A DNA stretch of 40,804 nt from a virus (taxonomy: Duplodnaviria > Heunggongvirae > Uroviricota > Caudoviricetes), in IMG/VR virus record IMGVR_UViG_2687453522_000003, positions 1-40,804 of that record; one strand, written 5' to 3'. Both the position numbers and the translations under genes were made by a program. Shown piece after piece: positions 6,752 through 39,550 of this stretch (position 1 is its first letter; each line of letters opens with the position of its first letter). The notes under the pieces were generated by a model. The model was not told the origin of the DNA, searched no databases, and worked only from the letters and a program-made list of their open reading frames with translations.

Positions 6752-7162
6752 ATGAATAAATTTTATAAAGGCTCTTTCTATCCGAAAGCACTAAAAGAGG
6801 TATATATCAGCGCCGGTTCATGGCCTGAAAATGGCGTTGATGTTGATGATGAAACAATGGCAATTTACACAGGCGTAGCGCCACAAGGCAAAACGCTGGG
6901 GGCTGATAAAAATGGTAATCCTGCGTGGATTGATATCCCGCCACTCTCCGCTGAACAACAGATTATTCAGGCTGAACAGAAAAGAACGGTATTGCGTTCT
7001 ATGGCTGATAAGGAAATAGCCTGGAGACAGGATGCTTTTGATGCGGAAATCGCGACGGCAGAAGAAACCGCCGCGTTATCTGAATGGAAAAAATACCGGG
7101 TCTTGCTGATGCGCGTTGATACAGCAAAACCCGTATGGCCTGTCAATCCGCAGGATATTTAA
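6752..7162 (+). CDS. Tail fibre assembly protein (partner of the silent fibre segment)
   Basis: MNKFYKGSFYP... N-terminus typical of Tfa chaperones; start 3 bp after the upstream stop. Confidence 0.65.
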   Translation: MNKFYKGSFYPKALKEVYISAGSWPENGVDVDDETMAIYTGVAPQGKTLGADKNGNPAWIDIPPLSAEQQIIQAEQKRTVLRSMADKEIAWRQDAFDAEIATAEETAALSEWKKYRVLLMRVDTAKPVWPVNPQDI

Positions 7163-29388: not shown

Positions 29389-29410
29389 GCCGCATAGCGG
29401 CCATTTTTTT
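29387..29410. terminator. Bidirectional intrinsic terminator between the cassette and Q
   Basis: AGGCCGC-ATA-GCGGCC flanked by A-tract and T-tract on both sides. Confidence 0.7.
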
Positions 29411-29772
29411 CATGTTAACAAAATACTTAAACAGCCATCGATGAATCCCATTGCAGTCTGTAATTCTTTTCGGATGGTCCCATCAGAACACTTCTGCTTC
29501 TTTGCGATAGTTCTTAATGAGATGCCGATAATAAAATGAGCAATAACCAACTCATACTCTTCGGGCTTATATTTACGCAATCGCGCAACACAGCTGTCAA
29601 TCATGATTCCTTCATCATCATCGCATTGTTGGCGTGTTTTCTTTCCATGAGGTAGTAAACCTTTAAACCCTGCAGCAACAGGCTGCCAGTCCACACCACT
29701 GTTATCTGCTGCAGCCCATGCTCCCCAGCGGTCCAAAACTTCATACATATCACGCATCAACTTTCTCCACAA
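29410..29772 (-). CDS. Late-gene antiterminator Q (phage 21/82-type)
   Basis: MRDMYEVLDRWGAWAA ... GFKGL ... CDDDEG pattern matches the Q family as I recall it; position after the nin region. Confidence 0.7.
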   Translation of the reverse strand: MWRKLMRDMYEVLDRWGAWAAADNSGVDWQPVAAGFKGLLPHGKKTRQQCDDDEGIMIDSCVARLRKYKPEEYELVIAHFIIGISLRTIAKKQKCSDGTIRKELQTAMGFIDGCLSILLT

Positions 29773-34093: not shown

Positions 34094-34698
34094 GCGTTAG
34101 TTTCTCCACAGTCACGACACGCCACGGCGCCCGGAGCTGCACACTCGCGGGCGTCATTACTTTCTGAAATGCAAAAGATTTTGTAGACCAGTGCTGCATG
34201 CTCCTGCAGCTTCGAAATTGAGAGATACAGCTCGTCGTTAATTGCTGTCTTCTCATGCGGTTCCACCACACCGTCTTCGATTGCCGAACGAATCTGTCTG
34301 GAATAACTGCCAATCTGTTCAATGACTTCCAGCAGGCGCTGGTTAATATCGGCGTTGTCCACATCCTCGACGTCAGGAAGAGACACAAAGACGCCATTTG
34401 CAGACTGCGCCACAGCGTCAGCAATGAAGTGAGTTCCACCAGCACGTTGCAAAATCATTGCCCATCCCAGCGGGAAAATCTGATCGCCATCGGCACGAAG
34501 GCGGTTAAATAATGCGTTTTCTGTTACATCCAGCCAGTCAGCTGCTTCAGCGTAACCACCCGGCAACGCTGCGATAGTTTTTCTGACAGCTTTCACGTAC
34601 CACTCAGGCTGTTTTTCTACTTTCCAGTGATGCTTACCCACGGTTAGCCTCATCGTTCTGTGGTTTCTGTTAATCGATTTATCCATTAGATTTTTCAT
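34090..34698 (-). CDS. CII-like / YdaT-type regulatory protein (by position)
   Basis: Immediately downstream of cro; start ambiguous (34698, 34686 or 34653); track ORF extends to 34755. Confidence 0.4.
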
Positions 34699-34879
34699 AA
34701 AGCTCAGGTTTAAATGGCAACCGTCCGCAAGTTCTATATGCAGCTTCTGCTGCACGTCCTTTTGGAATTAACTGGCCCGGACGGTTTCGCCACTGATAAA
34801 CGGCTTCAGTTGTTATGCCGAAAAAAGCAGCAACTTTCTCAATACTGCCGAAGTAGCTTTCGATATCGTCAGTTGTCAT
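34679..34879 (-). CDS. cro: Cro-like HTH repressor
   Basis: 66 aa, divergent from cI, HTH region FGITTEAVYQW. Confidence 0.75.
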   Translation of the reverse strand: MTTDDIESYFGSIEKVAAFFGITTEAVYQWRNRPGQLIPKGRAAEAAYRTCGRLPFKPELYEKSNG

Positions 34880-34976: not shown

Positions 34977-35603
34977 ATGGAAACGGTTGGTCAGCGTATA
35001 AAAGCTCTGAGAAGAGTTACCGGAACGTCCCAGAAAGAATTGGGTAAATTTTGTGGAGTAAGCGACGTTGCTGTGGGGTACTGGGAGAAAGACATCAATA
35101 CCCCTGGTGGGGAGGCACTTTCGAAATTAGCGAAGTTCTTCAATACGTCAATAGATTACATTCTTTATGGTGCTGAGTTTGAAGGCAAACTCGTCACAAA
35201 CATGCGCAGAGTTCCTGTAATATCGTGGGTTCAGGCTGGGCAGTTTACTGAGTGCAGGGCAGCAGAAGTGTTTAGTGAAGTGGACAAGTGGGTAGATACA
35301 TCATTAAAGATTGGTGATAACTCATTTGCATTAGAGGTTAAAGGTGACTCCATGACTAACCCTAATGGCCTCCCAACAATACCAGAAGGCGCAACAGTGA
35401 TTGTAGATCCAGATGCAGAACCTCGTCATGGAAAAATAGTCATCGCTCGACTTGATGGAACAAACGAAGCTACAGTAAAAAAATTAGTCATCGATGGCCC
35501 TCAAAAGTTTTTAGTGCCATTAAATCCTCGGTATCCCAACATCCCTATCAATGGTAATTGCCTTATCATTGGTGTAGTCAAAGGAGTTCAATACGAACTC
35601 TAA
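34977..35603 (+). CDS. cI: CI-type repressor (HTH plus S24 LexA-like peptidase domain)
   Basis: N-terminal HTH, Ala-Gly (QAGQ) cleavage site, GDSM serine and downstream KK. Confidence 0.85.
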   Translation: METVGQRIKALRRVTGTSQKELGKFCGVSDVAVGYWEKDINTPGGEALSKLAKFFNTSIDYILYGAEFEGKLVTNMRRVPVISWVQAGQFTECRAAEVFSEVDKWVDTSLKIGDNSFALEVKGDSMTNPNGLPTIPEGATVIVDPDAEPRHGKIVIARLDGTNEATVKKLVIDGPQKFLVPLNPRYPNIPINGNCLIIGVVKGVQYEL

Positions 35604-35620: not shown

Positions 35621-35682
35621 TAAGGCACCGAACTAAGAAAAGTTTGGTGTTTTCTCTTGCCATAATAACTAAGTTAAGTTAG
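35621..35682. promoter_or_regulatory. OL-type operator region downstream of cI
   Basis: CTAAGTTAAGTTAG (35669..35682) matches the OR sites; additional CTAAG repeats at 35621..35637. Confidence 0.45.
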
Positions 35683-35809
35683 ATTTTATATCAAAGATAA
35701 CGAACAGGCAGGACGCCCACGAAGTAGCCGCCTGGGGCATATGAAGTCCAGGATGATTCGTTGAGTCATGTTGTGCCACCAGGCACTCATGTTAAAGCAG
35801 GTGTATGAA

Positions 35810-36085
35810 ATGAAAGTCCAGATTTTAAACAATAACTGTGAAGTCGTTTGGTCATACGACATAGCCGCCCCTGTAGATCAGAGCGGCGATAGCTGGACCA
35901 ATGGGAAACATCAGATTATGGCTGGAGTTGTGTTCTCTTTACGCCGTGCTTTGGAACAGGCTGAAGTATTTCCATCAGACCCTGAATGGAAATGGCCTTT
36001 TTCTATTTGTCCAAATTCGGAGAGCACATTTCAGAAAATTGGTCAGAAAGTCGCACTCGAAGAGCATCAGCCAACTGTTTCCTGA
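35810..36085 (+). CDS. Hypothetical protein, first gene of the leftward-operon analogue
   Basis: AGGTG 6 nt upstream of the ATG at 35810; track ORF begins at 35768. Confidence 0.5.
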   Translation: MKVQILNNNCEVVWSYDIAAPVDQSGDSWTNGKHQIMAGVVFSLRRALEQAEVFPSDPEWKWPFSICPNSESTFQKIGQKVALEEHQPTVS

Positions 36086-36248
36086 TTTTTTCAGGTAACT
36101 CGTCGGCATCGCAGAAACAACAACGCTCGATCATGTTGAAAGCCGATTCGTAGAACTGTTTCTGCTGAGTGTCGCTGAGACAGGAAAAGAGCGACGTTAC
36201 GATGATTTTATTAATTGCATTATCAAGTTCTTTTTCATCAAAAGTCAT
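36003..36248 (-). CDS. Hypothetical protein, convergent with and overlapping 35810..36085
   Basis: AAGGAAAA ribosome-binding site upstream of the ATG; 81 aa, acidic. Confidence 0.5.
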   Translation of the reverse strand: MTFDEKELDNAINKIIVTSLFSCLSDTQQKQFYESAFNMIERCCFCDADELPEKIRKQLADALRVRLSDQFSEMCSPNLDK

Positions 36249-36502
36249 TTGATTTTCCTTTTATGTATACGCGCTTAAAAGGATACCACCGAGCCTGAAG
36301 TGGTGAAAAGACAGGCACATAACAGCTAAGTATTTTCAACCAGAGAGAATTCTTAGCGTTGTGGTGAATGCGGCTCAGCGCACGCGGGTTAAGGTTGAGG
36401 CTGACAGTCGACCTTCTGTGGATACCCACCCGCCTGGTGTGCAACCTTCGCCAGGCACCGGGAGGCACCCGGCACCACAACTTTATGCTGTGTGTAGTCT
36501 TG

Positions 36503-36548
36503 GCGGTACCAGCTTGTACCCTTGCTTCCGGCTGGTACCGTCCTTTTT
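36503..36548 (+). terminator. Intrinsic terminator within the leftward-operon analogue
   Basis: GGCGGTACCAGC ... GCTGGTACCG stem followed by TCCTTTTTAC. Confidence 0.55.
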
Positions 36549-36761
36549 ACAAAACAGAGAAGAGCATCACCGGACGACGGGCTCATAACCCAATCCATCC
36601 GGGCGGCTGCCACCGCAGGTGTTCTTCTATGTTTTGTGGAGAAACTAACCGCCCCTACGGGGGCATTTATGGAAATGTAATTGACTCAATAATCGCCGGA
36701 TGGTGAGGGATTCTTTTTACCAGAATTCAGCGCGGTGCAGCGCATATACGTGGAGAACAAA

Positions 36762-37298
36762 ATGTCATTTATTAAAACTTTTTCCGGGAAGCATTTTTAT
36801 TATGACAGGATAAATAAAGACGACATCGATATTAACGATATCGCGGTTTCCCTTTCAAATATCTGTCGCTTTGCCGGTCATCTTTCGCACTTCTACAGCG
36901 TCGCCCAACATGCGGTTCTTTGCAGCCAGCTGGTGCCGCAGGAATTTGCTTTTGAAGCGTTAATGCATGATGCAACAGAAGCGTATTGCCAGGACATTCC
37001 CGCACCACTGAAACGCCTTCTTCCTGACTATAAACAAATGGAAGAAAAAATAGACGCCGTAATCCGTGAGAAATACGGGTTACCCCCAGTTATGAGTACG
37101 CCCGTGAAATATGCCGATCTCATCATGCTGGCAACCGAACGCCGCGATCTCGGGCTTGATGATGGCTCTTTCTGGCCTGTACTGGAAGGTATCCCGGCAA
37201 CAGAGATGTTCAACGTGATTCCACTGGCACCGGGCCATGCCTACGGGATGTTTATGGAACGCTTTAACGAGTTATCGGAGTTACGCAAATGCGCATGA
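36762..37298 (+). CDS. HD-domain phosphohydrolase-like protein (YfbR/YfdR-like)
   Basis: H...HD...E pattern (SVAQHAV ... LMHDATEAY); 178 aa from the ATG after GGAG. Confidence 0.55.
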   Translation: MSFIKTFSGKHFYYDRINKDDIDINDIAVSLSNICRFAGHLSHFYSVAQHAVLCSQLVPQEFAFEALMHDATEAYCQDIPAPLKRLLPDYKQMEEKIDAVIREKYGLPPVMSTPVKYADLIMLATERRDLGLDDGSFWPVLEGIPATEMFNVIPLAPGHAYGMFMERFNELSELRKCA

Positions 37299-37651
37299 AT
37301 GTTTTCGAAATGGAAGGGTTTCTTCGTGGGAGATGTGTACCGCGAGATCTGAAAGTAAATGAAACAGATGCTGAATACCTGGTGCGTAAATTCGATGCGC
37401 TTGAAGCTAAATGTGCAGCACAGGAAAACAAAGTAATACCAGTGTCAACTGAACTGCCACCAGCAAATGAAAGTGTTTTGTTATTCGATGCTAACGGAGA
37501 AGGCTGGCTAATTGGCTGGCGTTCTCTCTGGTACACCTGGGGACAAAAAGAAACCGGAGAATGGCAGTGGACATTTCAGGTCGGGGACCTTGAAAACGTC
37601 AATATCACTCACTGGGCAGTAATGCCAAAAGCACCGGAGGCTGGAGCATAA
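37289..37651 (+). CDS. DUF551-like phage protein
   Basis: Trp-rich C-terminal GWLIGWRSLWYTWG; family from memory. Confidence 0.5.
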   Translation: MRMNVFEMEGFLRGRCVPRDLKVNETDAEYLVRKFDALEAKCAAQENKVIPVSTELPPANESVLLFDANGEGWLIGWRSLWYTWGQKETGEWQWTFQVGDLENVNITHWAVMPKAPEAGA

Positions 37652-37956
37652 TGACCACTTTTACCGACAAAGAACTGATTAAAGAAATTAAAGAGCGTAT
37701 CAGCAGCCTTGACGTGCGAGACGATATTGAGCGCCGTGCTTATGAAATCGCACTCCTATCTCTGGAAGTAGAACCAGATGAACGCGAAGCTTATGAATTA
37801 TTCATGGAAAAGCGTTTCGGTGACTTAGTAGATCGTCGGAGAGCAAAAAACGGCGATAACGAATACATGGCATGGGATATGACTCTCGGTTGGATCGTCT
37901 GGCAGCAACGAGCTGGTATCCATTTTTCAACAATGTCACAGCAAGAGGTGAAATAA
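37651..37956 (+). CDS. Hypothetical early protein
   Basis: ORF directly upstream of xis. Confidence 0.5.
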   Translation: MTTFTDKELIKEIKERISSLDVRDDIERRAYEIALLSLEVEPDEREAYELFMEKRFGDLVDRRRAKNGDNEYMAWDMTLGWIVWQQRAGIHFSTMSQQEVK

Positions 37957-38306
37957 TGGAGCCATACAGCCTCACACTCGATGAGGCCTGTCATTTTCTC
38001 AAGATATCCAGACCGACTGCCATTAACTGGATACGCACAGGGCGTCTTCAGGCAACACGCAAAGATCCCACTAAGAATAAATCTCCTTACCTCACAACAC
38101 GACAAGCCTGCATTGCGGCTCTTCAGTCTCCGCTGCATACTGTCCAGGTGAGCGCGGGTGATGGCATAACAGAGGAAAGAAAATGTCACTCTTCCGCAGA
38201 GGTGAAATATGGTACGCCAGTTTCACATTGCCGAACGGTAAAAGATTTAAACAGTCTCTTGGAACAAAGGACAAAAGGCAGGCGACAGAACTCCATGACA
38301 AGCTAA
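37956..38306 (+). CDS. xis: Excisionase (P22 Xis-like)
   Basis: 116 aa from the ATG at 37956, overlaps the int start in another frame. Confidence 0.7.
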
Positions 38307-39346
38307 AGGCTGAAGCATGGCGGGTCAGCAAACTTGGTGAAATACCTGATATAACGTTCGAGGAAGCGTGTGTCAGGTGGCTTGAAGAGAAAGCACATAA
38401 AAAATCACTGGACGATGACAAAAGCCGGATCGGATTCTGGCTTCAACATTTCGCAGGAATGCAACTAAGAGACATTACTGAATCAAAAATTTATTCAGCA
38501 ATGCAGAAAATGACGAACCGGCGTCATGAGGAAAACTGGAGACTCAGGGCAGAAGCATGCAGAAAAAAAGGGAAACCTGTTCCAGAATACACGCCAAAAC
38601 CAGCGTCCGTTGCAACGAAGGCTACGCATCTTTCATTTATAAAGGCCCTACTAAGAGCCGCAGAGCGTGAATGGAAAATGCTGGATAAGGCACCAATTAT
38701 TAAAGTGCCTCAACCAAAGAATAAACGGATCCGCTGGCTGGAGCCCCATGAAGCACAAAGGCTGATTGATGAATGTCCGGAGCCATTAAAGTCTGTTGTT
38801 GAATTTGCACTGGCAACAGGCTTAAGACGCTCGAACATCATCAACCTTGAATGGCAACAAATAGACATGCAGCGCCGGGTGGCATGGATAAACCCGGAAG
38901 AGAGTAAATCAAACCGCGCAATTGGCGTTGCGCTGAATGATACTGCATGTCGCGTTTTGAAAAAACAAATCGGGAATCATCACCGTTGGGTATTTGTGTA
39001 CAAGGAAAGCTGTACCAAACCAGACGGAACGAAAGCGCCAACAGTAAGGAAGATGCGGTATGACGCAAACACAGCCTGGAAAGCGGCGCTGAGACGGGCT
39101 GGTATTGATGATTTCAGATTTCACGACTTGAGACACACCTGGGCAAGTTGGCTGGTTCAAGCCGGAGTCCCGTTGTCAGTGTTACAGGAAATGGGAGGCT
39201 GGGAGTCTATCGAAATGGTTCGTCGATATGCTCACCTTGCACCTAATCACCTTACCGAACACGCACGGCAAATAGACTCGATCCTGAACCCATCGGTCCC
39301 AAATTTGTCCCAGTCAAAAAATAAGGAAGGTACTAATGATGTGTAA
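38183..39346 (+). CDS. int: Tyrosine integrase, P22/Sf6-type
   Basis: 387 aa; N-terminus [34 protein letters not shown] matches P22 Int as I recall it; catalytic R...HDLRHT...Y region near the C-terminus. Confidence 0.9.
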
Positions 39347-39360
39347 CTTATTGATTTAAA

Positions 39361-39436
39361 TGGTGCCGATAATAGGAGTCGAACCTACGACCTTCGCATT
39401 ACGAATGCGCTGCTCTACCAACTGAGCTATATCGGC
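39361..39436 (-). tRNA. thrW: tRNA-Thr (anticodon CGU), thrW-type; prophage attachment site at its 3' end
   Basis: Reverse complement reads GCCGATATAGCTCAGTTGGTAGAGCAGCGCATTCGTAATGCGAAGGTCGTAGGTTCGACTCCTATTATCGGCACCA. Confidence 0.9.
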
Positions 39437-39550
39437 CCTGAAAGGACATGTTCACGAACGTGAATCACGGTGGGCAAGGTTAAAACTAACCGGGCGATGC
39501 GTCAATGGCCTTGTGAATCAAATGGCTACTTTTGCATCACCCGGTTTTAT

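Follow-up and report, generated by a model that had tools for sequence, protein, structure and literature searches.

A conserved non-coding leader with an STnc100-family core in the early-left operon of an SfV/ST64B-like lambdoid prophage

The window analyzed here is a 40,804-nucleotide (nt) stretch of viral DNA (IMG/VR virus record IMGVR_UViG_2687453522_000003, positions 1 to 40,804) that constitutes a complete SfV/ST64B-like lambdoid prophage. Positions 36250-36735, which lie between the start codon of an 81-amino-acid (aa) minus-strand open reading frame (ORF) and a yfdR-like gene, are the conserved non-coding leader of the early-left operon in this SfV/ST64B/e14/LLS-type prophage. The leader holds three conserved RNA parts: a core belonging to the STnc100 small-RNA family, an intrinsic terminator, and a three-way junction with an arm like that of initiator tRNA. 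The analysis establishes the family identity of the leader, its structures and their covariation, its non-coding status, the anatomy of its terminator, and its conserved synteny. The most likely reading, whose chances we put at about even, is that the leader attenuates transcription, undergoes processing, and frees an STnc100-type small RNA.

A non-coding leader with three conserved RNA parts

An initial annotation, made from the sequence alone, had described a GC-rich stretch with inverted repeats and no convincing ORF, and each part of this description is borne out. The G+C fraction is 0.545-0.57 in 200-nt windows over 36300-36599, against 0.40-0.46 on both flanks, and predicted folds are more stable than those of dinucleotide shuffles (z = -2.9 over 36328-36551, -3.1 over the core, and -5.5 to -6.3 over 36543-36646). 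The palindrome singled out at the time, CCGGGAGGCACCCGG, lies at 36458-36472, where it forms helix P5 of the core. A six-frame analysis of 116 variants, anchored on a 21-mer that is invariant in the family, gives median stop-free spans of 75-159 nt with no frame consistently open, and no ORF over the leader region has a Pfam family. The parts of the core are as follows.

36358-36481, plus strand: STnc100-family four-way-junction core of the GCGG type (Rfam RF02076, model R1, covariation)
36358-36366 with 36473-36481, plus strand: P1
36370-36385, plus strand: P2
36391-36397 with 36442-36448, plus strand: P3, the 5' strand pairing with the P4 loop as a pseudoknot
36433-36437 with 36451-36455, plus strand: P4
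36456-36476, plus strand: family-invariant 21-mer CACCGGGAGGCACCCGGCACC, including P5 (36458-36472)
36482-36501, plus strand: single-stranded linker UUUAUGCUGUGUGUAGUCUU, with a GUGKAGU-like motif common to GCGG-type elements in the alignments

The match to Rfam RF02076 is full length (model positions 1-206, window positions 36328-36551, plus strand; 44.1 bits, E = 1.8e-7) and is the sole STnc100 match in an Rfam scan of the window. Related prophage copies score 45.2 (SKA5), 39.5 (SfV), and 35.1 bits (ST64B), the bits being lost mainly at P2, where the stem is compensated. Model R1, a covariance model built from a 27-member alignment of diverse family members including the window copy, scores that copy at 77.3 bits (E = 1.3e-18), and the next best hit in the 40.8-kb window reaches 13.5 bits. 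The 21-mer is unchanged in at least 120 IMG/VR viral contigs, which reduce to 116 distinct elements. All are built alike: P1 is followed by the trinucleotide AAU, by a P2 hairpin that has a bulged A and GCG in its loop, by an insert of variable sequence, by P4, and by P5, which stacks on the 3' strand of P1. The core is a divergent, sub-threshold member of the known STnc100 family.

Covariation supports the fold. The initial annotation had suggested folding and covariation among related prophages as a check, and helices of both the core and the three-way junction do covary. For the core, RNAalifold on the 27 members gives 22 pairs, 11 of them with compensatory changes; P1, P2, and P4 covary, and at three pairs of P2 the window type has G-C where canonical members have C-G. 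The covariation score is 0.200 versus 0.102 in shuffles, none of 500 reaching the observed value, and 88.7% of cells are paired in register versus 43-53% when the partners are slid. G-U pairs outnumber A-C mismatches 34 to 6, and the plus strand is therefore the RNA strand. In 32 of 36 representatives the P4 loop pairs, through unrelated sequences, with a stretch that lies 28-36 nt from the 5' end (AAGGUUG with CAACCUU in the window); an element's own loops score a mean of 12.6, and loops swapped between elements 8.6, the scoring having been done by script because MAFFT columns were too inconsistent for pair counting. This recurrent pairing makes the core a pseudoknotted four-way junction.

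About 20 nt past the core stands the second part.

36502-36550, plus strand: rho-independent terminator tL, with a stem of 36502-36513 and 36531-36542 (12-13 base pairs, bp) followed by CUUUUUAC at 36543-36550

A terminator on the same strand as xis and int had been predicted here, and closer analysis confirms it: the stem-loop at 36502-36542 is followed by a U-run at 36544-36548, and the predicted energy of -22.2 kcal/mol (z = -4.26) is matched by none of 200 shuffles. A simple terminator scan missed tL, the 17-nt loop lying beyond the limit of the scan. The terminator is also the 3' end of the Rfam STnc100 match. ST64B and LLS have unrelated stem sequences, yet each has a hairpin and a CUUUUUAC-type U-run at the equal position. 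A terminator-like hairpin occurs within 130 nt of the core in 82 of 111 family members; the U-run begins 68 nt after the end of the 21-mer in the window, the family median being 54.5 nt (interquartile range 48-67).

The third part begins at the terminator U-run.

36544-36643, plus strand: three-way-junction RNA (energy, alignment A3, tip conservation)
36549-36571 with 36618-36637, plus strand: Stem I, extendable by pairing of the U-run 36544-36548 with a conserved GGAGAA at 36638-36643
36570-36602, plus strand: Stem II, tip GGG-CUCAUAA-CCC, with three G-C pairs and loop at 36579-36591
36603-36616, plus strand: Stem III, variable
36651-36664, plus strand: Hairpin IV (GCCCC-UACG-GGGGC), a covarying hairpin in relatives, usually with a UGCAG loop

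The predicted energy of the junction is -39.8 to -44.8 kcal/mol (z = -5.5 to -6.3). In alignment A3, which holds 15 diverse copies, 96.1% of cells are paired versus 91.3% in shuffles (a value reached by none of 500) and 39-53% in slid controls, with compensatory changes at 9 pairs, as many as arise in 1 of 500 shuffles. The tip of Stem II, CGGGCUCAUAACCC (36578-36591, 14 nt), exactly copies the anticodon stem-loop of the initiator tRNA (tRNA-fMet) of E. coli; the tRNA sequence was confirmed against 5425 genomes. Among 91 distinct copies, gathered through the Stem I 3' arm only and without use of the tip motif, 75 have GGG-CUCAUAA-CCC exactly. At least 28 of 81 loci with the junction also carry an STnc100-type core some 110-130 nt upstream, and the two therefore form a unit. 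Neither Rfam nor ARAGORN recognizes the junction, and only thrW (39361-39436) is called as a tRNA in the window. As far as our search shows, the junction and the composite leader are undescribed in Rfam and in the searchable literature.

The same arm recurs in the late region of Klebsiella phages, in a short RNA directly after tRNA genes (L161:1500-1575; also L165, L171, L192, and L196). This RNA ends in (A/G)CCA and has a 6-7 bp acceptor-like stem (GGCCUG/CAGGCC); neither ARAGORN nor the Rfam tRNA model calls it, and it may be an unusual tRNA-like molecule without a D arm. The idea that the long hairpin is itself a tRNA gene was discarded: the Klebsiella-phage BLAST match labelled tRNA-Asn/Arg starts at the tRNA 3' end and covers the sequence beyond it.

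Upstream of the core, the conserved leader opens with two smaller features.

36285-36316, plus strand: 5' boundary motif ACCACCGAGCCUGAAGUGGUGAAAAGACAGGC, exactly where the homology of relatives (e14, SfV, LLS, Pantoea, Lelliottia) begins
36325-36357, plus strand: leader hairpin GCUAAG...CUUAGC directly 5' of P1 (inverted repeat, predicted fold)

The 5' motif may form an H-type pseudoknot (S1, 36285-36289 with 36300-36304; S2, 36293-36297 with 36312-36316; an A-rich third loop). The positions that would pair are the same in every sampled copy and show no covariation. The motif could alternatively contain a weak minus-strand promoter-like sequence, TTCACC-16-TATCCT at 36307-36280, upstream of the 81-aa ORF. 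At the place of GCUAAG...CUUAGC, another hairpin stands in ST64B. In six loci (L170, L255, L230, L018, L126, and L133), the stretch from the start of the divergent minus-strand gene to the 36285-type motif contains a hairpin with the conserved loop CUGUGUGAGAAC, whose stem covaries (CUUGG/CCAAG, CUGG/CCAG, or CUGC/GCAG).

The early-left operon and the wider STnc100 family

The prophage is integrated at thrW (tRNA-Thr 39361-39436), adjoining proA. Its early-left operon and immunity region are laid out as follows.

29410-29772, minus strand: Q-like late antiterminator (PHROG scan)
34679-34879, minus strand: cro
34889 and 34938: two copies of the operator repeat family AACTAAGnnnnnnTTAG, between cro and the repressor gene
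34977-35603, plus strand: LexA-type repressor gene, facing cro
35657-35685, plus strand: probable PL promoter, TTGCCA-17-TAGATT (promoter scan, 9 of 12), directly after the repressor gene and pointing toward xis/int
35666-35682: third copy of the operator repeat, TAACTAAGTTAAGTTAG, overlapping the probable PL
35768-36085, plus strand: SfV orf33-like ORF (phrog_3195, PHROG E = 8e-70), between PL and the leader
36003-36248, minus strand: 81-aa ORF (phrog_3311, PHROG E = 1e-55), with its ATG on the complement of 36246-36248
36762-37298, plus strand: yfdR-like dNMP phosphatase gene (phrog_318, E = 3e-110), the first delayed-early gene here
Within 37872-38306: xis, rightward of PL
38183-39346: int, rightward of PL

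Phage LLS has the same operator type, with TTGACC-17-TAGATT corresponding to the window PL. The ORFs at 35768-36085 and 36003-36248 are convergent, overlap by 83 nt, and form an insertion between PL and the 5' motif in the window, SfV, and e14; LLS is without the pair and has the leader directly after PL, its 5' motif starting 17-18 nt after the PL -10, and further relatives have other genes there. The ATG of the yfdR-like gene, at 36762, has a GGAG 8 nt 5' of it. RefSeq calls yfdR in a genome identical to the window, and most relatives have yfdP-yfdQ first instead.

The terminator stands between PL and all downstream early-left genes. On the plus strand from 36500 to 39500 there is no promoter-like site (at least 9 of 12) and no further strong terminator; yfdR through xis-int therefore depend on transcription that passes 36548. 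In K-12, a single transcriptional module takes in ymfH, xisE, intE, and ymfJ of the e14 element (PMC12133099), which is consistent with transcription from PL through the leader.

Comparison of the early ORFs with PHROG identifies a repressor, Cro, a CII-like activator, RusA, the Q-like protein, the dNMP phosphatase, Xis, and several unknowns. The initial annotation had found no N-like antiterminator gene, and none is annotated among these PHROG matches either, although some ORFs remain of unassigned role; the window prophage is likely to lack an N analogue. In a side observation on the rightward operon, C4 antisense RNA and isrK, scoring 80-84 and 60-67 bits, stand in tandem in SfV, mEp460, ST64B, an Stx2c phage, and 118970_sal3 (L001:1262-1450, L002:824-1012, L003:909-1097, L129:914-1102, and L130:105-293), and an Rfam scan of the window finds no copy of either. 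The same scan gives a weak match to IS009 at 6952-7128, near the far prophage end (37.5 bits against a cut-off of 117, E = 2.5e-5).

Elements of the STnc100 family fall into two types. Of 85 canonical (CCCC-type) elements, 61 carry a terminator and 23 a sigma-70-like promoter with its -10 ending 5-9 nt ahead of P1; of the 49 with a called downstream ORF, 24 precede holin genes and 14 precede a phrog_143 gene of 620-660 aa. Canonical copies thus resemble independent small-RNA genes, located in the moron-rich zone ahead of the lysis cassette. Their upstream neighbors are mixed (TerB-like, DnaJ-like, Stx2B, rarely Q), and the notion that STnc100 is a PR'-tR' late leader RNA was dropped. None of 20 GCGG-type elements, the type found in the window, has a promoter-like site abutting P1 (a -10 ending 2-12 nt before it); the window itself has a weak AAGACA-17-TATTTT 21 nt away, and its -35 is not kept in relatives. 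GCGG-type elements occupy a fixed address several hundred bases 3' of a cI-like repressor gene, on the same strand and 5' of the early-left genes, in the window, SfV, SfII, SfIV, SKA5, e14, ST64B, 118970_sal3, several IMG/VR contigs, Pantoea, and Buttiauxella. In mEp460 and LLS a more divergent version (28 bits) lies at the same place, with P5 compensated in LLS (GGUGG/CCACC) around an unchanged AGGCA loop.

Of 5426 complete E. coli genomes, 3008 contain matches to parts of the leader region. A genome-wide scan with a degenerate pattern gave many chance matches in unrelated phyla, and only those in Enterobacterales were confirmed by the model. Cores also occur in tandem, with three within about 1 kb at L015:2330-3272 and two, exactly 484 nt apart, in L023, L041, L056, and L077. 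In Buttiauxella (L146), GUGGAGAACUAACC directly follows P1, and in the window GUGGAGAACUAACC follows the three-way junction; because of this, the terminator and junction look like an insertion into the linker.

Several family members are documented as transcripts. In EDL933 (E. coli O157:H7), 11 STnc100 copies are expressed without induction, one of them Northern-confirmed (PMC5331693). EcOnc27/sRNA103, which is overlapped by the STnc100 copy 3' of stx2B, binds Hfq (PMC12711010). PasD was detected by Northern blot and RIL-seq, and Storz and colleagues proposed a common ancestor for PasD and STnc100 (bioRxiv 10.64898/2026.05.13.724894). Such discrete, Hfq-associated RNAs are seen for other copies of the family, and the window copy may by analogy give rise to one.

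Attenuation, antitermination, and other readings of the leader

Transcription from PL (35657-35685) would cross the inserted gene pair and then copy the promoter-less STnc100/PasD-type core at 36358-36481. Roughly 20 nt further on, most polymerases would halt at 36502-36548, releasing a transcript with a stable STnc100-type 3' domain, and this RNA could act in trans, as its Northern- and Hfq-documented relatives suggest. The terminator, the sole strong barrier between PL and yfdR...xis-int, would thus be an attenuator that sets delayed-early expression. In RNA that reads through, the U-run would become part of Stem I (roughly 30 bp) of the tRNA-like three-way junction, a candidate processing or protein-binding site that would part the small RNA from the downstream mRNA.

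Several points weigh against this account. The Rfam score of 44.1 falls slightly below the curated cut-off of 47. A duplex scan of the small RNA against the prophage's own gene starts returned only self-overlaps and unconvincing pairings. GCGG-type cores without any terminator lie 25-62 nt 5' of a start codon in Buttiauxella, Lelliottia, and Pseudescherichia (L144:3697-3880, L146:981-1165, L133, L134, and L141), which gives the core a role apart from ending a small RNA. In conservation and complexity, the near-invariant, pseudoknotted core goes far beyond the needs of a base-pairing small RNA, a hint that its partner is a protein or the polymerase. Between PL and yfdP, the viable phage LLS carries two terminator-like hairpins, which argues for an active read-through mechanism that attenuation and processing leave unexplained. 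Finally, the efficiency of termination, the release of a small RNA and its action in trans, the processing, and the licensing of read-through are all things that we infer. The extra LLS hairpin and U-run (CUGGCUGCUCAC...GUGACAGCCAGCUUUUU) stand at L162:2195-2250, between the PL-proximal motif and the STnc100-like core.

It is also possible, but in our view unlikely, that the leader acts in cis by RNA antitermination, working as put does while being unrelated to it: the leader RNA (the 36285-36316 motif, the core, or both) would stay on the polymerase and carry it past the terminator at 36548 and the Rho-dependent sites of the long untranslated leader into yfdR...xis-int. The idea draws on the lack of any N-like gene among the PHROG matches; on LLS, where specialists likewise found no N and guessed at a put-type mechanism (PMC12315714); on the position of the leader before the sole strong terminator of the operon; on the LLS-type 5' motif close behind the PL -10 and ahead of two terminator-like hairpins; on the promoter-less GCGG type with its fixed early-left position; and on the extreme conservation of the core, which suggests a macromolecular partner. 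The initial annotation had offered a cis-acting, HK022 put-like RNA or another regulator as one of its two explanations. A structured non-coding RNA is indeed what we find, but the kinship to put is not: reading side by side, we see no similarity of sequence or structure between the leader and HK022 putL/putR or the HK639 putL-like RNA, and searches with model R1 come up empty both at the HK639 putL-like feature and across the HK022 immunity region. The HK022 and HK639 put RNAs resemble each other and not the leader, and membership in the put family is excluded. A filter-free covariance-model scan of the whole window, moreover, finds no putR-like second copy in the rightward operon. Besides its put-like RNA at PL, HK639 carries a bona fide STnc100 element (52.6 bits, L128:44780-44985) in the late region, after Q and between a tRNA gene and a holin gene.

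The main objection to antitermination comes from the canonical copies, which lie with promoter and terminator directly before holin genes and appear as discrete RNAs in uninduced lysogens; if the core suppressed termination, these units would read into the lysis genes. In addition, the window leader lies some 600-670 nt from PL (the core about 670 nt) and is not promoter-proximal, and the 5' motif is without covariation and could be a minus-strand promoter.

If antitermination or another control in cis did hold, the whole leader could be the missing N-substitute of the N-less lambdoid phages (SfV, SfII, SfIV, ST64B, e14, LLS, and some Stx2c phages), a broader proposal that we consider doubtful. 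Leader RNAs would then act in cis on polymerase or terminator, licensing xis/int and yfdPQR, and the tRNA-fMet arm mimic would add a second layer as a sensor or decoy for VapC-type nucleases, MetRS, or IF3. This would amount to a new class of RNA control unrelated to put, and to a first function for an abundant orphan family that is among the most often annotated of enterobacterial small RNAs. The pseudoknotted four-way junction of that family is unusual for a purely base-pairing small RNA. The question of the early terminators in LLS (PMC12315714) becomes testable, with LLS, SfV, ST64B, and e14 in K-12 as tractable systems. A widespread RNA with an initiator-tRNA arm is likewise a fresh candidate for translation control or phage counter-defense. 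If no role in cis holds, the leader is an ordinary prophage small RNA with its terminator.

We rate as quite unlikely a factor-dependent attenuator, in which the four-way junction, the tRNA-like junction, or both would bind a protein or ligand (a phage early product, MetRS, IF3/30S, or Hfq), and occupancy would set termination at 36548 or the translation and stability of the message, by a logic like that of nut, riboswitches, or the thrS operator. The order of parts would suit such a device: a P1-closed junction, a linker of about 20 nt, and a terminator, with other members placing the core 25-62 nt before a start codon, a mixture of expression platforms that is typical of cis-regulatory RNAs. 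The Stem II tip, which copies 14 nt of the anticodon arm of initiator tRNA exactly, and the conserved GGAGAA after Stem I that pairs with the terminator U-run, point the same way. However, inspection of the window and ST64B shows no alternative antiterminator pairing with the terminator 5' arm; a riboswitch-style pairing of that arm with the P1 3' strand or the linker was sought and nothing convincing emerged. The orf33-like ORF, the sole gene 5' of the terminator, is absent from LLS and ST64B and is no universal partner.

A role in anti-defense is very unlikely in our estimation. The tRNA-like arm would be cut or bound by tRNA-fMet nucleases (VapC/MvpT of Shigella and Salmonella), shielding the real tRNA early in infection or coupling prophage expression to toxin activity. 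VapC cleaves tRNA-fMet in the anticodon arm, and the copy of that arm is exact, including the three G-C pairs; it is kept among phages of Shigella, Salmonella, E. coli, and Klebsiella, is located in the early transcript, and has a free-standing, CCA-ended version in the tRNA clusters of Klebsiella phages. But the argument is one from resemblance alone, the arm lies within a long helix 3' of the terminator, so that little of it may be made, and the e14 and ST64B copies have changes in the loop.

The other explanation first offered for this stretch, a decayed protein gene (a frameshifted remnant of ymfH or of the opposite-strand phrog_3651 protein), fails. Annotation does favor it on the surface: RefSeq lists the e14 copy in K-12 as the 103-aa YmfH and an identical copy of the window region as a "frameshifted hypothetical protein" (PGAP), and the minus-strand ORF at 36389-36613 matches phrog_3651 (E = 3e-49). 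Yet the supposedly intact genes of relatives are ORF calls on both strands over one RNA-encoding DNA (minus-strand phrog_3651 and plus-strand phrog_33599). YmfH crosses three reading frames of the window sequence, and K-12 ymfH owes its open frame entirely to an indel in the terminator loop and, within the otherwise invariant 21-mer, to the deletion of 1 nt and a G-to-A change; model R1 still scores the e14 copy beneath it (L126:3082-3393) at 60.4 bits. In a related Stx2c phage, the equivalent full-length minus-strand ORF, of 151 aa, runs antisense to the start of a yfdP-like gene. With variation that keeps base pairs rather than codons, no frame kept across the 116 variants, and no Pfam domains, a decayed gene is scarcely credible. 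K-12 ymfH is probably not a protein gene but an ORF call over a degenerate RNA. Over-expression of ymfH is listed as a trigger of the retron-Sen2 toxin RcaT (preprint 10.1101/2020.06.22.160242), and that trigger may be an RNA; the probable mis-annotation bears on screens that use ymfH as an ORF, such as this retron-trigger screen.

Comparison with known systems

The closest relatives are STnc100, PasD, and EcOnc27 (sRNA103), which the window element resembles in its four-way-junction core (P1, AAU, P2 with bulged A and GCG loop, P4, and P5), in the invariant 21-mer, in the linker of about 20 nt followed by an intrinsic terminator, and in its Enterobacterales prophage hosts. Compared with STnc100, the window P2 is compensated (GCGGC/GC.CGC for CCCCC/G.GGGG) and there is an extra internal hairpin. 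The window copy is promoter-less and early-left, after cI/PL, whereas canonical copies are units of promoter and terminator in the late region.

Like HK022 put, to which the initial annotation compared it, the leader is a structured early-left RNA upstream of a terminator, in a lambdoid phage where no N gene was found. However, put is a two-stem V shape of about 70 nt, the window has no second, rightward copy, and members of the STnc100 family terminate efficiently enough to appear as discrete RNAs.

A promoter-proximal terminator that limits delayed genes is familiar from the lambda PL-nutL-N-tL1 region, with the RNase III site of its N leader, and from the PR'-tR' 6S RNA and StxS. By analogy only, these share with the leader a short terminated transcript able to act as a small RNA, and a long leader helix as a likely processing site. 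Unlike in lambda, no N, boxA, or boxB is recognized in the window, and its terminated RNA would be a complex conserved fold; canonical STnc100 copies are not consistently beside Q. C4 antisense RNA, IsrK, and P4 CI RNA are likewise structured prophage regulatory RNAs of the immunity region, and the leader region gives no match to their models in the Rfam scan even at E up to 10.

The three-way junction shares with tRNA-fMet the 14-nt identity, comprising three G-C pairs and the CUCAUAA loop. In contrast to a tRNA, it has neither D arm nor T loop, and its "acceptor" is a helix of 20-30 bp without CCA, set within an mRNA leader. A tRNA-like arm is a feature that it has in common with tRNA-mimicking mRNA operators (thrS) and with the small stable RNAs of phage tRNA clusters.

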